A DNA stretch of 63,655 bases, the filler included, from Octopus bimaculoides (taxonomy: Eukaryota), in assembly GCF_001194135.2 (NCBI RefSeq). It is 6 parts of 6 records of this genome, joined end to end, with 100 filler letters (N's around TTAATTAATTAA, not from the genome) between each part and the next. Parts side by side here need not be neighbours in the genome. Positions count along the whole stretch, not along the records: positions 1 to 10,907 come from NC_068986.1; positions 11,008 to 15,537 come from NC_068995.1; positions 15,638 to 27,979 come from NC_068993.1; positions 28,080 to 38,506 come from NC_069004.1; positions 38,607 to 58,356 come from NC_068984.1; positions 58,457 to 63,655 come from NC_068994.1. One strand, given 5' to 3'. The first letter of the stretch is position 1. Each line of letters opens with the position of its first letter. Positions 1 to 61,602 of this stretch are shown piece after piece. The notes below the pieces were generated by a model. It was not told where the DNA came from. It saw only the letters and a program-made list of their open reading frames with translations, and did not search any database. Made by a program: the position numbers and the translations under genes.

Positions 1-778
1 TATATATATATATATATATATTGATAGAAAAGGTACGACAACAAAAGAAAGATAGAGACCTCGATATTATGTAAATAGAGGAATTTATCTGTAAATAATA
101 TGTGACAATTATTCGGTAGCAATGATAAAACTCTGAGTTTCGGATGTCGGGGCGGAAACCTACGCCGCCATCGAAAAAATGCTATGAAAATGACCGTTAA
201 ACAAAGGGAAAATACTGTGTGATTGACCGTTATTAAGACAAAAGAGCTATTAGAGTGACCGCTAAGTGAGGGGAGGGAGTAAAGGTAAGGGAGTAAAAAT
301 GTCCATAGTATTCGCGTAACCGCTTAAGTCCATATATACACATGTGCGCCCGCACACCCACGTACATGCACCTATATGTATATACTCAGCCACCCTCACT
401 TGAAACACACACATGCTCACCCACAAATTCGCCAAAATATATATATATATACCAGCATACATGCTCGCACACACACACACGCGCGCGCACACAAAAAAGG
501 TTCATACACACGTCTATATACGCACATACCCGCACACATGCACACATCCACAAGCACGCACAAAAGGTTCCATATACACGTCTATATACGCACAGGAAAA
601 ATGCAGGGTGGAAAGTAGAATACAGAAAAAATATGTGTAAAAAATATATGAGCAATAAACCTATAAACCAATATTTCTATAAATATATAAAAAAATATTT
701 AAAAATATATAAGAAATATAAGTAAAAAGTATAGAGAGATAAAAAGCTTGTACGTGGACACAATATAGAAAGCAAGTC

Positions 779-1700
779 CTATCTGTAATCTCGGGGGGAC
801 CAAAAACGTAACAAATATTTAGCCACATGTGGACATGATCTGAAAAGTTCAGTTCTTGAATTTAGATATGTGGCGGGGTCTAAGCTGCTTTTCCAGATGA
901 GCCATCTTTCCATATCACAAAGACCGCACTTTCCGCTGCTGTTGGTGTAGGGCTTACACTTGGCTGAGATCTTCCAATGGATGTTGTAACTGATACCTTT
1001 ATCTTTTAAGGACCATATATGATGGGATAATTTGGTCGTTTTCCTTTTATCCCAGTGCCTGAAGCTCAAGGTGTGATTATTGAACCTAGCCTTGACATTA
1101 CCCTCTGTAAGGCCCACATATTTCTCCGTCGTGATTGTGTCCTCAGTGGATATAGAGTCCACAGTGGCTTCATAAATGATGGCCTCGGACATGCAAGCTC
1201 CATTTAGCGGCCACAATTTTTTATCCCTGCATGAACAGCTGGTTTCATATTGTGGTTTTTGTGAGTTGTGTGCGATTATATTTTAAAAATTAGTAGTTGA
1301 GCTGAAACCAACTTTTAAGTTATGTCTACTGAAGAGCTTTCTGTAACTATGGTTGTCTGGAAAATGTCTATCTATCAGTGCTAAGAAATACTTGCCTATA
1401 TTAAAGGTCACTACGGGTGAGTAGGGGTGTGTGAACCAGATAGTTTTCCTATTTCTGTTTTCTTTTCTTTATTATTGGACTGGTGGCAAGTGTATAGGTT
1501 ATTTCCTCGCTAAATCTACTATCTTTTAGAGGCTTATTATATACTGGGGCAGCGCTATTAAAAAATGTCCCTATCGGAGGAGAGGCTAGAAATTCTTTTG
1601 CTAATGTTTTTAACTAAATGTTTAAACATTATGGGGGATGGCGGGAACCCATATTAATATAACTAAGTCTATCGTTGGGCTTCCTATAAGGTTTATAAAT
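779..1700 (-). pseudogene. PLE ORF C-terminal half (RT thumb, linker, GIY-YIG endonuclease), disrupted
   Basis: Manual translation gives YKPYRKPNDRLSYINMGSRHPP.., ..KRISSLSSDRDIF../NSAAPVYNK, RNRKTIWFTHPYS..NIGKYFLALIDRHFPDNHSYRKLFSRHNLKVGFS, CSCRDKKLWPLNGAC, then AIIYEATV..KYVGLTEGNVKARFNNH..CGLC..NSRTELFRSCPH. Several frameshifts and one in-frame stop near 1285. Confidence 0.9.
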
Positions 1701-2148
1701 ATTCTTATTTATGTGCGTATATAGACCTGCTTTACTATTATTGCTTTTTTACACTTTTTTTCTGTATTTTGCCTTTAGCCCTGTTTTTTCTTGTGCATGT
1801 GCGTATATAGACGTGTGTATGAACCTTTTTTTGTGCGCGTGTGTGTGCATGTGCAAGCGTGTATGCGGGTATGTATATATTTTCTGGCGAATTTGTAGGT
1901 GAGCATGTGTGTGTTTCAAGTGAGGGTGGATGAGTATATACATATAGGCGCATGTACGTGGGTGTGCATGCGCGCATGTGTATGCTTGGACTTGTGCGCT
2001 TACGTGAATACTATGGACATTTTTACTCCCTTACCTTTACTCCCTCCCCTCACTTAGCGGTCATTCTAATAGCTCTTTTGTCCTAATAACAGTCAATCAC
2101 ACAGTAATTTCCCTTTGTTTAACGGTCATTTTCATAGCATTTTTTCGA

Positions 2149-2222
2149 TGGCCAGATAATTGAAGAGATGGCGGCGTAGGTTTCCGCCCCGACATCCGAA
2201 ACTTGGAGTTTTATCATGGCTA
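2149..2222 (+). ncRNA. Hammerhead-ribozyme-like motif in PLE pLTR (core variant TTGAAGA)
   Basis: GCCA-GATAA / TTATC-A-TGGC stem I; TTGAAGA at 2160-2166; GATG..CATC stem II with internal GGCGG/CCGCC; GAAAC at 2198-2202; GUU cleavage triplet at 2208-2210. Confidence 0.55.
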
Positions 2223-2242
2223 CCGAATAATTGTCACATATT

Positions 2243-2319
<77 letters not shown>

Positions 2320-4229
2320 NNNNNNNNNNNNNNNNNNNNNNNNNNNNNNNNNNNNNNNNNNNNNNNNNNNNNNNNNNNNNNNNNNNNNNNNNNNNNNNNN
2401 NNNNNNNNNNNNNNNNNNNNNNNNNNNNNNNNNNNNNNNNNNNNNNNNNNNNNNNNNNNNNNNNNNNNNNNNNNNNNNNNNNNNNNNNNNNNNNNNNNNN
2501 NNNNNNNNNNNNNNNNNNNNNNNNNNNNNNNNNNNNNNNNNNNNNNNNNNNNNNNNNNNNNNNNNNNNNNNNNNNNNNNNNNNNNNNNNNNNNNNNNNNN
2601 NNNNNNNNNNNNNNNNNNNNNNNNNNNNNNNNNNNNNNNNNNNNNNNNNNNNNNNNNNNNNNNNNNNNNNNNNNNNNNNNNNNNNNNNNNNNNNNNNNNN
2701 NNNNNNNNNNNNNNNNNNNNNNNNNNNNNNNNNNNNNNNNNNNNNNNNNNNNNNNNNNNNNNNNNNNNNNNNNNNNNNNNNNNNNNNNNNNNNNNNNNNN
2801 NNNNNNNNNNNNNNNNNNNNNNNNNNNNNNNNNNNNNNNNNNNNNNNNNNNNNNNNNNNNNNNNNNNNNNGTCTGTATTTGTGTGAAAGGGTGGGATGAG
2901 GGATAACGGCATGGTGGTGATGATAATGATGATGACGGCGACAATGATGACAATGATGTCGTCGACGAGTCCTTTTTTTTTTTAGATAAATGTCCTGAAA
3001 TTACCGAACGATTATAGCTAATTAATATAATTATACAACACAACTGTTATAGTATGTCGGTCGAGGTCGGCTGCTTGCTATGTTTATCAGCAAATATGTA
3101 CTTGCAACAATATCCTTCGTTCCCACTGTTTCTCTATGACAGGAAGTATATCTGATAGGAAATGTTTCAAATGCTATATGCATGCGTAAATGTATTTTTT
3201 ACATTCTCTCTCTCTCCCTAACCCCGCTCTCCCTCTATTTATCTTCATCTCCTTACACACACATACACACACACATACACACACTCACACACACACACAC
3301 ACACCACTCACACACATATTTACATATGCACACACACACACCACGTCAAACAGACCATACACACACACATACATACATATATATTTATTGACCGCACATT
3401 TACAGACACACACACAAACACACACACACATATATATATATACACACACACATACATACGTGTACATGTAAACACGTGCTCACGTGATGCATACATACAC
3501 ACATATCCTCATGCACACGTATACACTCACATATGCAGATACATTTACATACGTACACACATACATATATACACACACATACATACATACATACATACAT
3601 ACATACATTCACGCACACACACACACATGCAAAGTAAGGCTGTACTTAGGCTATTGGGGAGAGAACACAAATCTTTAATTCATACACTACAAATTATCTC
3701 GATATCTGAGAGCAAAACATGACGCTTTCCTTTATAACCTTGCTACCAAGCAGGTGGCCGGCCAAAATTTATTCTAAATTAAGAAGAGAAAGAGAATATA
3801 CATGCTGCATGCAAAACGCTCACGTACGCGCGCGCGCACACACACACAAACCTAGAAATACTCGGTTTCATGGATAAAGAGCAAAAGAAACTGACGCAGA
3901 TTCTCCAAATCCAATCTATTAGTGGCACAGTGAAGATATGTAAGATATTCCCAAACTTCTCCATCTGAAATTCTAATGTGAACAGATGCGCTCACTTGGG
4001 TGAATGCATCGACCGTTCAACCAACACATCAACTCAACTACATAGTTACAAACACCAGGAACTTTTTTAATTTTAAAAGTCTTATCTCTTTGTTAGCGAC
4101 CGGCTTGAACTCTCTCAAGAAAAACTTAAATTAAACTCAAAGAAAAATATGCATACATACATGCGTACATACGTATTGGTCAGATTTTCCGGCCATAGGT
4201 TTTCAGGTATACAATCAAATAAATTCAGA

Positions 4230-4460
4230 TAGGGTGTCAGTCGTCGACTATCTCGGACACACACGTACCTCTAATGTACTTTTCAGGCGGAATCTTGCGT
4301 GACAAAGTGTCACAATGCTGAACATTCAAACTCCACGAACAATCCATCCAACGGGTTTTTACACAGCTTAGTCTATCCAATTTTACTCACAAGGTATGAT
4401 TCAGCACTTGCCCAAGATGCTAGGCAGTGGGATTGAAACGGGGACCTCGTAATTTAGAAA
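4230..4460 (-). mobile_element. Degenerate tRNA-derived SINE fragment (family A-related)
   Basis: cacttgcccaagatgctaggcagtgggattgaaac resembles the family A core seen at 14646-14807. Confidence 0.55.
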
Positions 4461-60410: not shown

Positions 60411-60512
60411 TATTTGACAATTCACTGTATATCCTGATGTTGTAATAATTAATTAAACTATCCTCTATATTTGATATGATGTCTCATTCCTTTTGTGTAT
60501 ACTTCAATACAG

Positions 60513-60582
<70 letters not shown>

Positions 60583-61304
60583 GACAAAACAATAATGAAG
60601 GAGATAATTATAAACGTAATAACAATAATTACCAAGAATTTAAATTTTTTTAAATGGATATATAGAAAGATCTATGAAAGTAATACAAACCAATATATAA
60701 AAATACTTATCAGTACAGTGACAGAAGCCAATGTTATAGTCATATCATTTCAGTAAATGTAACGGAGACACAGGATGAATGAACTGCATACGTGATCGTA
60801 CTTATTCATCTTATTATGTACTCTTCTGTTTCTTTTAAATTTAATTAATATTCTTAGAAATATTACTATTAACTATGTTATAATAAAGAAAGCTACTTAC
60901 TAATTAGTTTGGATTACGTAACTTTTACTAAAAGAAAGAAGTTATTAAAATTTTAATATATTTTTTATCAAAATGCGGTTTTTGTTTTGTTATTGAATAT
61001 TTCAAGTATATGTTCCAGTCAGAAATTTAATTTTTATTCACTGCAACATTTTGATTCACTGCAGGGTAGCATTTATGAAAGTCTGTTTATACTTCTGAAC
61101 ATATAAAGATTGCCCAGATATTTACAACCCAGCATTCTACAAATTATAAGCTTAATCCAGTTTCATGTGATTTATGTTAATTTTAAAAAAAATAGTGCTC
61201 ATGGGAACTGCCCATATCCTACGTAAAATACTGTCTATGTAATACCAAATTTTAAAACAGATTTATAATTTTCTTGTATTTTTTTAAGCATTCTCTGGGA
61301 CAAT

Positions 61305-61429
61305 ATTATGTACAAAACCAAATATATGACACCCTAGGCATAACACCAACATGAACTTCTAATTTGTCTCTTGAGGTCTCTGGGTGAGACTTGGAGTCAA
61401 CTTGGATAAATACAAAGCAAAAGTCAAAC

Positions 61430-61430
<1 letters not shown>
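61305..61430 (+). mobile_element. Probable non-LTR retrotransposon 3' UTR ending in a (TAA)n tail
   Basis: gaggtctctgggtgagacttggagtcaac..gcaaaagtcaaacata is immediately followed by (TAA)n; family assignment is from memory. Confidence 0.5.
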
Positions 61431-61510
<80 letters not shown>

Positions 61511-61559
61511 TAGTAGTCAAGACGAAGAGCGCGATTCGATTGTATAGATGTTTTATTCG

Positions 61560-61602
61560 TTGAACGATATTTCGACAGAACGTCTGTCTTTGTCAAGTTC
61601 AA
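61560..61602 (-). ncRNA. Decayed minimal hammerhead-ribozyme-like motif
   Basis: TTGAAC-TTGACAA-A-GACAGA-CGT-TCTGTC-GAAA-TA-TC-GTTCAA: perfect 6-bp stems I and II, with two core substitutions relative to CTGACGA. Confidence 0.55.

Follow-up and report, generated by a model that had tools for sequence, protein, structure and literature searches.

The DNA analysed here, called the window throughout, is a 63,655-nucleotide stretch from Octopus bimaculoides (GCF_001194135.2), a pack of six stretches with joints near positions 10908, 15538, 27980, 38507 and 58357. A preliminary description had read about nine loci in it as hammerhead ribozyme relics of type I order. We find that the ten flagged sites represent eight insertions. 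The flagged cohort exists but is for the most part unremarkable; what gives it interest is one member that had been misread, an RNA domain in the tail of a repeat family that we call family E. Six insertions do belong to type I families, whereas the sites at 57080 and 57400 have another strand order and the site at 46880 lacks stem I. The reading of 57080/57400 as a type I motif of a Penelope-like element (PLE) did not survive, as these sites lie in the 3′ untranslated region (UTR) of a long interspersed element (LINE) with a restriction-like endonuclease (RLE), and their core is wired differently. The best joint explanation, which we consider quite probable from the sequences, is that the six type I insertions are truncated ends of hammerhead-bearing repeat families, five of them linked to PLEs, and that family E is the tail of an RLE-type, likely HERO-clade, LINE with a rewired fold, likely to be self-cleaving. 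The family E insertion contains the following features, named by their open reading frame (ORF) or helix where applicable.

57063..57746, minus strand: family E, 5′-truncated 3′ end of an RLE (HERO-like) non-LTR (long terminal repeat) retrotransposon, from genome search and upstream ORF
57248..57332, minus strand: spacer from the N-terminus of the element's own ORF, by sequence match
57645..57746, minus strand: tandem repeats of ~60 bases, then a TATA-like box (57645-57652), upstream of the RNA domain; putative promoter
57122..57222, minus strand: split-core, hammerhead-like domain in the order of type SGC, by descriptor and covariation
57444..57544, minus strand: the domain repeated with identical sequence; cut predicted between 57496 and 57495
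57212-57222 with 57122-57132, minus strand: helix P0 of the domain
57198-57211, minus strand: hairpin of the domain
57191-57196 with 57160-57165, minus strand: stem II, an upstream pairing
57183-57190 with 57145-57152, minus strand: Pa, an extra helix
57175-57178 with 57153-57156, minus strand: stem III
57168-57173 with 57140-57145, minus strand: stem I
57156-57159, minus strand: GAAA, core strand
57133-57139, minus strand: CUGAUGA, core strand
between 57174 and 57173, minus strand: predicted cut, at the NUH position

Family E has 1562 candidates in the genome, the best copies being 98-100% identical, with a fixed 3′ end. Upstream of the tail come the 60-base repeats, the TATA-like box and then the end of an ORF with CCHC and PD-(D/E)xK-like motifs; the ORF also has an N-terminal zinc finger. 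Relatives 56-58% identical have RVT_1, their closest solved structure in the PDB is the R2 protein, and by their database names they come from fish, lancelets and bivalves. The flanks are unrelated in 30/30 copies except for a short TC-rich end, no consistent target-site duplication was found in 14 copies, and no relatives were found in viral contigs. The HERO clade, as described in the part of PMC4640811 cited here, has the same single ORF with zinc finger, reverse transcriptase (RT), CCHC and restriction-like endonuclease, the same insertion in unrelated flanks and the same 5′ truncation. By these features family E is an RLE-type LINE, likely of the HERO clade. Readings as a PLE, a short interspersed element or an LTR element were dropped because an RLE ORF was found upstream, and those as a type I, type II or hepatitis delta virus (HDV)-like ribozyme were rejected by inspection.

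The two window copies at 57080 and 57400 are identical over 181/181 bases, including locus-specific flank, and abut the gap at 57333-57378. Elsewhere, 13 of 16 two-domain family E loci have the arrangement domain-spacer-domain-tail with a period of ~280-325 bases, the spacer following the first domain. The second copy of tail and flank in the window is probably an assembly duplication at the gap, the whole being one young insertion.

In the family E 3′ UTR the core strands come in the order cleavage site, GAAA, CUGANGA, with all core letters present. We examined this arrangement in 81 relatives: 80 loci from metagenomes, whose ORF ends are related at 31-59% identity, and one from a genome contig that includes a UTR; loci L278 and L280, without sequence after the match, were excluded from UTR counts. 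A descriptor of the rewired fold parses 38/81 relatives, and 37/68 of those with at least 150 bases of UTR, compared with 0/68 on the reverse complement, 0/81 on the ORF side, 1 match in 20x68 shuffles and 2 in 20x38 shuffles in which the core was kept. Allowing one core mismatch adds two relatives. In the octopus genome the domain passes in 19/21 best-match copies and 10/20 copies selected by ORF. Letters that the descriptor does not force are also retained: G10.1 in 36/36 motifs and G16.2-C15.2 in 35/36, and helix P0 begins right after A9 in 34/36.

The helices themselves covary. On a sequence-only alignment of 30 motifs, RNAalifold predicts the upstream stem II alone, with 9-10 double changes at three of its four pairs; the first pair with this upstream partner forms in 36/36 motifs, as the descriptor requires, and the alignment served as an independent check. 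The full five-helix structure has 88% of cells paired and double changes at 24/26 pairs, helix Pa showing double changes at 6/6 pairs and 90% of cells paired, and its covariation score is 0.59 versus 0.17 shuffled (0 of 500) and 0.08-0.13 slid; these figures are not probabilities, because the motifs are related and were chosen by descriptor. The backbone is opened between A9 and G10.1, because the partner of the strand before GAAA lies upstream, and is closed by P0 and the hairpin. All hammerhead core letters are kept in a covarying, rewired fold common to distant relatives. In this fold stems I, II and Pa would meet in a second three-way junction, replacing the usual contact between loops I and II, and Pa would bend back to stem III through a kink-turn-like loop, or through an A-rich bulge in family E. 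The kink-turn-like pattern, scored against the kink-turn consensus, occurs in 24/36 motifs and is absent from the window copy. Rfam, which has no model of the fold, gave no hammerhead at 57000-57700 and 0 matches at gathering score in 20 relatives.

The closest published counterpart is type SGC (HRIMA-1 and variants; Eckert et al. 2023, PMC10085705, of which parts are cited throughout), a hammerhead that is not circularly permuted and for which cleavage has been demonstrated. Both have the block order site, GAAA, CUGANGA and a short linker from stem I to stem II, with an extra helix joining the far ends of the stems, and some type-SGC cases lack bases between the extra helix and stem III, as in the window. 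They differ in that the stem II strand directly follows CUGANGA in type SGC, whereas in family E the strands of stem II and the extra helix lie at the 5′ end. Canonical SGC pairing is found in 53.8% of cells of the family E alignment, no better than slid controls, and its first pair forms in 1/36 motifs without a skip and 16/36 with one; family E as a canonical SGC was rejected, as SGC pairing fails. Instead, pairing and strand order make the family E domain a circularly permuted type SGC, whose opening lies between A9 and G10.1 and which P0 and the hairpin close. Type SGC was found in metatranscriptomes, whereas the family E domain lies in animal-type LINE 3′ UTRs, and the kink-turn-like loop has no named equivalent in the main text of PMC10085705, where the word "kink" is absent. 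Searches of the open-access literature, in main texts, found no hammerhead or other ribozyme described for HERO, type SGC only in PMC10085705, and no description of the split-core fold.

The domain probably self-cleaves, with the cut 3′ of NUH. Several observations weigh against this reading and against its setting in a HERO element. PMC10085705 states that known hammerhead alignments have at most 1-2 bases between CUGANGA and its stems, and in the family E domain two helices enter between CUGANGA and stem II. Among relatives, 29/68 are unparsed even with one core mismatch, and the invariance of GAAA, CUGANGA and NUH in the aligned set is there by selection, because that set was chosen by descriptor. 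The HERO assignment itself draws on signature motifs of the clade. Ribonucleic acid sequencing (RNA-seq; three runs, ~6% of each read, tied to some carriers of family E by species label only) gives reads on both strands of the domain whose ends do not accumulate at the predicted cut, and across the tail-to-5′ UTR junction read depth drops from about 180 to 0-2. The head-to-tail junctions described below add two further difficulties: the two genomic ones differ by ~13 bases, which suits template jumping better than one fixed circle, and those in metagenome contigs may be assembly collapses. Finally, for one PLE, insertion in vitro did not require cleavage by the ribozyme (PMC11167929).

Much of this evidence would also fit a different account, in which the HERO 3′ UTR fold is a hammerhead-derived scaffold, with no or negligible cleavage, that is bound by protein for target-primed reverse transcription. 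R2-type RT jumps templates, and on this account the head-to-tail junctions, with their unequal lengths, would stem from such jumping. The interruption of the core at A9/G10.1, the blank in RNA ends at the site and the read-through of the predicted cut in 30/30 tested copies agree with it, as does the binding of a pseudoknotted RNA by an R2 protein (PMC12222951). However, unforced letters of the catalytic context are retained among proteins only 31-59% identical, and all five tested type-SGC RNAs that were expected to work did cleave (PMC10085705). Standard RNA-seq is moreover poor at revealing such ends, and a PLE ribozyme that cleaves in vitro likewise left no read ends (PMC11167929). We regard this account as unlikely.

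What a self-cleaving domain would do for the element is suggested by the arrangement of its copies. Head-to-tail junctions, with a 3′ piece directly before the 5′ UTR, occur in 2/30 loci found with the ORF start (L397 and L399) and in 8/38 parsed relatives. The start of L399 lies 16 bases upstream of the predicted cut, at which 0/30 copies start. Cleavage at two successive domains would free a unit-length RNA that would then be re-ligated to a circle; reverse transcription would start from the fixed tail end and proceed round the circle, across the sealed cut, and a 3′ piece would be left upstream of full-length copies. The most likely role, tentatively, is that head-to-tail transcripts are cleaved in a controlled way and re-ligated into circles of unit length. 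The promoter of family E, by its sequence, may lie in the 3′ UTR, upstream of the RNA domain. The fuller picture, in which HERO-like LINEs combine an active SGC-permuted hammerhead enclosed by two added junctions, circle-templated copying, PLE-like partial tandems and a promoter in the 3′ UTR, is somewhat more doubtful still.

The published hammerhead classification (PMC10085705) assumes that the CUGANGA block is inseparable from stem II. A natural, widespread and covarying split-core exception would extend the tolerance of the core and account for the failure of descriptor and Rfam searches to detect it. In the literature searched, the ribozymes of R2 and other LINEs are HDV-like and lie at the 5′ end, and there is no counterpart to self-cleavage within the 3′ UTR of an R2-related LINE; if true, such cleavage would point to another route by which the template for transposition is made. 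In the octopus genome, family E is young, with near-identical copies in which the domain is intact.

Some further observations concern HERO-like elements and split-core motifs. The family E 3′ UTR has 2-3 copies of the 60-base repeat, a TATA-like box and an initiator-like word (L113-L137). Between stop codon and RNA domain, the 3′ UTRs of L217, L254, L257, L263 and L275 have stretches that look tRNA-like by eye. HERO-like fragments on short contigs of three bacterial genome records (L278-L280) are probably contamination. Two more split-core, SGC-order motifs with unrelated stems, in L294 near 7780-7860 (+) and in L303 near 3210-3300 (-), come from an even genome sample, where they have pyrimidine-rich flanks and no ORF was found nearby. 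A split-core motif of another family in this genome, like those of the L202-type relatives, lies in L019 near 2880-2950 (+).

The other insertions tell a more familiar story. Six of them fall in six repeat families (A, B, C, D, F and G) whose copies bear minimal type I hammerheads, in places with pseudo-long terminal repeats (pLTRs) and ORF remnants recognisable in the window.

90..644, minus strand: family A pLTR, 3′ copy, with a hammerhead remnant at 124-172; CUGANGA and 5′ stem I deleted
779..1700, minus strand: broken PLE ORF end, with an open frame at 782-1282 and a GIY-YIG-like endonuclease (Pfam E=0.035, below cut-off)
1745..2249, plus strand: family A inverted pLTR, with a type I hammerhead at 2151-2220, predicted cut after 2210
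7831..7871, minus strand: family B decayed hammerhead, half of an inverted pair, from the family alignment
7880..7921, plus strand: family B decayed hammerhead with palindromic stem III, from the family alignment
16164..16634, plus strand: family C PLE endonuclease remnant, GIY-YIG-like (Pfam E=0.0035, below cut-off)
17749..17840, plus strand: family C type I hammerhead; loop II is long, and this copy has a mutated G8 and a 23-base deletion
23118..23223, minus strand: family F type I hammerhead; long loop II, intact core, decayed stems II and III
46883..46921, minus strand: solitary core, stem II and GAAA, without stem I; relic or chance
60356..60409, plus strand: type I hammerhead of family D that has lost the 5′ strand of stem I but keeps its core and stems II and III intact
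61560..61602, minus strand: minimal hammerhead of family G; U3-A8 core, one additional base following A9, stem III of two pairs; predicted cut after 61566

Sites 130 and 2150 belong to a single family A insertion, of which they form the two inverted ends; between them lies a broken ORF with a GIY-YIG-like domain at its end, and a search for longer homologues of this first endonuclease piece in the window found none. The 2150 copy has the full type I layout with C3 mutated, and family A, with 2913 genome candidates, passes the intact descriptor in 22/35 extracted copies. At site 7850, two decayed halves of family B point away from each other. This family is old (14 other matches, 69-90% identity), and 0 of its copies pass the descriptor, the core, GAAA and stems being visible in 7 matches. 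Site 17800 sits 1.1 kb behind the family C endonuclease remnant, and 6/25 copies of this family (317 genome candidates) are intact. Family F has 421 genome candidates and 4 intact matches in family loci. At site 60360 the 5′ strand of stem I has been displaced by another repeat; family D has 11 other matches to the motif part among fetched loci, and 1/9 extracted copies is intact. The only intact type I copy in the window is that of family G at 61560-61602, whose predicted fold yields stems I and II. This family (1259 genome candidates, 12/16 copies intact) has the U3-A8 core in place of a canonical CUGANGA. The families of 2150 (A) and 60360 (D) have a common stem III and related endonucleases at 55-68% identity, so that the proposal of unrelated stems is only partly borne out. 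The site at 46880 had no family in the genome search, its sole other genome match falling outside the motif, and its loose pattern of core, stem II and GAAA arises in 1/100 shuffles.

A PLE origin of the type I families is indicated by endonuclease matches near hammerhead loci (A 10/30, C 5/25, D 5/20, F 3/15, and G 5/15, the last with Pfam GIY-YIG above cut-off). Five of the six families lie downstream of GIY-YIG endonuclease remnants; family B, with a match in 0/15 loci, counts against the attribution. The fetched type I loci extend up to 1.5 kb. Six of the eight insertions are thus truncated ends of type I hammerhead families, five of them tied to Penelope-like endonuclease genes, which bears out the proposal of several ribozyme-bearing PLE lineages; further families appear in locus flanks. 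Within these families copies share a fixed 3′ end but are ragged at the 5′ end, and second copies occur in inverted orientation; in family G the 3′ tail is optional, being present or absent. The suggestion that most copies are solo pLTRs was not upheld, as they are 5′-truncated insertions with a fixed 3′ end and not recombination products.

Known hammerheads in the pLTRs of EN+ PLEs (PMC4209133, PMC8557442) agree in their type I order and short stem I, in the base added after A9, in G10.1-C11.1, and in having a U3-A8 variant and a stem III that is palindromic or of two pairs. PLE genomics in the same papers shows equally many unrelated families, mostly single truncated ends, inverted pairs, optional 3′ tails and microsatellite targets. 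We see no difference of kind from the PLE hammerheads described there; C and F carry loop II insertions of ~60-80 bases. Palindromic stem III, part of the earlier proposal, is found here too: in A, B, C and F it forms a self-duplex at -9.7 to -13.3 kcal/mol and no monomer hairpin, D has the stem III of A, and G, with two pairs only, does not form the duplex. In the literature, PLE ribozymes with such a stem III act as dimers and cleave slowly. The type I ribozymes would process tandem PLE transcripts, most genomic copies being dead through neutral decay. Differences in divergence between core and flank within families were small and inconsistent and were not used. These PLE relics are ordinary, adding new families to a pattern described in 2014.

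Two other explanations of the loci have to be weighed against the PLE and LINE origins. The preliminary description had also invoked non-autonomous retrozymes, replicating as small RNA circles. Metazoan non-LTR retrozymes (PMC7229834, bioRxiv 10.64898/2026.07.22.740005, both cited in part) do have the same type I hammerheads in animal repeats, and the period of ~280-325 bases in 13/16 two-domain family E loci could give a small circle. Retrozymes, however, are tandem non-coding units of 150-450 bases with canonical ribozymes, whereas the families here are ends of coding elements and do not form short tandem arrays: direct second copies number 0-1 per type I family among 11-29 loci, common sequence in the longest copies reaches 0.8-1.6 kb upstream with long, variable 5′ extensions and endonuclease remnants, and in family E the spacer comes from the element's own ORF. 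We consider a retrozyme origin very unlikely.

Chance could instead have produced the motifs, the DNA being rich in AT and repeats. In the window, 0 loci fit a strict canonical type I descriptor, CTGANGA occurs 30 times versus 20.6 expected (a count reached in 4/100 shuffles), and the folding z-scores of window copies are no better than -1.7 in 7/8. The strict descriptor returns nothing because it is too strict for PLE variants. A relaxed version, permitting the known extra base after A9, U3-A8 core and one stem II bulge, finds 1 intact locus (61566-61596, minus strand) and 0 matches in 12 shuffles; with one core mismatch it finds 3 loci (2160, 17752 and 61566), compared with a mean of 0.2 and a maximum of 1 in 40 shuffles. 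Shuffling, the control proposed with the original claim, gives 0-1 matches. On 1.24 Mb of fetched loci, which were selected for the type I families, there are 57 intact type I matches versus 0 after one shuffle, the 57 including seven other motif types in locus flanks. Seven of the eight insertions belong to repeat families with better-kept motifs in other copies, and for these seven chance is refuted; it may hold for 46880 and for a further core at 7138. As an explanation of the loci generally it is scarcely credible: the motifs are real as a set, mostly decayed copies of known PLE-type hammerheads.

An Rfam search of the whole window (E<=10), also proposed at the outset, gave no hammerhead among the best 150 of 387 matches, which were microsatellite-driven; the source genome, of 2.34 Gb, is rich in microsatellites. 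In view of this result and the 0 loci of the strict descriptor we searched the genome with each site and then examined the families. The cohort had also been called dense. In a family-blind count, 4 motif-bearing matches in the 55 kb window compare with 7 in a 509 kb genome sample of 60 evenly spaced stretches (binomial p=0.017), a comparison that involves small numbers and a window chosen after the fact; the family-based count of 11 matches versus 5 in 509 kb is skewed by the choice of families, which were taken from the window itself. The window is thus richer than the sample, but the flagged loci are not one genomic cluster, because the stretches come from different contigs: four of the six were placed on four separate ones (C6, C13, C4 and C14).

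Several minor features were seen in the course of this work. Intact type I hammerhead-like motifs of other types lie in the flanks of L144, L086, L343, L319, L118, L134 and L363; three of these have the U3-A8 core, and L363 contains an inverted pair. At 7138-7168 (-) the window has a core, a weak stem II and GAAA without stem I, with no copies in fetched loci. A fragment of a mariner-type transposase (Pfam HTH_48, E=8e-6) lies at 8744-9073 (+), and frames at 59988-60308 (-) and 34533-34817 (+) resemble LINE protein fragments by eye, the second without a Pfam match. A sequence of ~190 bases (42266-42661) is repeated on either side of the gap at 42390-42462, probably an assembly duplication, and a 194-base dimer occupies 25793-26194.

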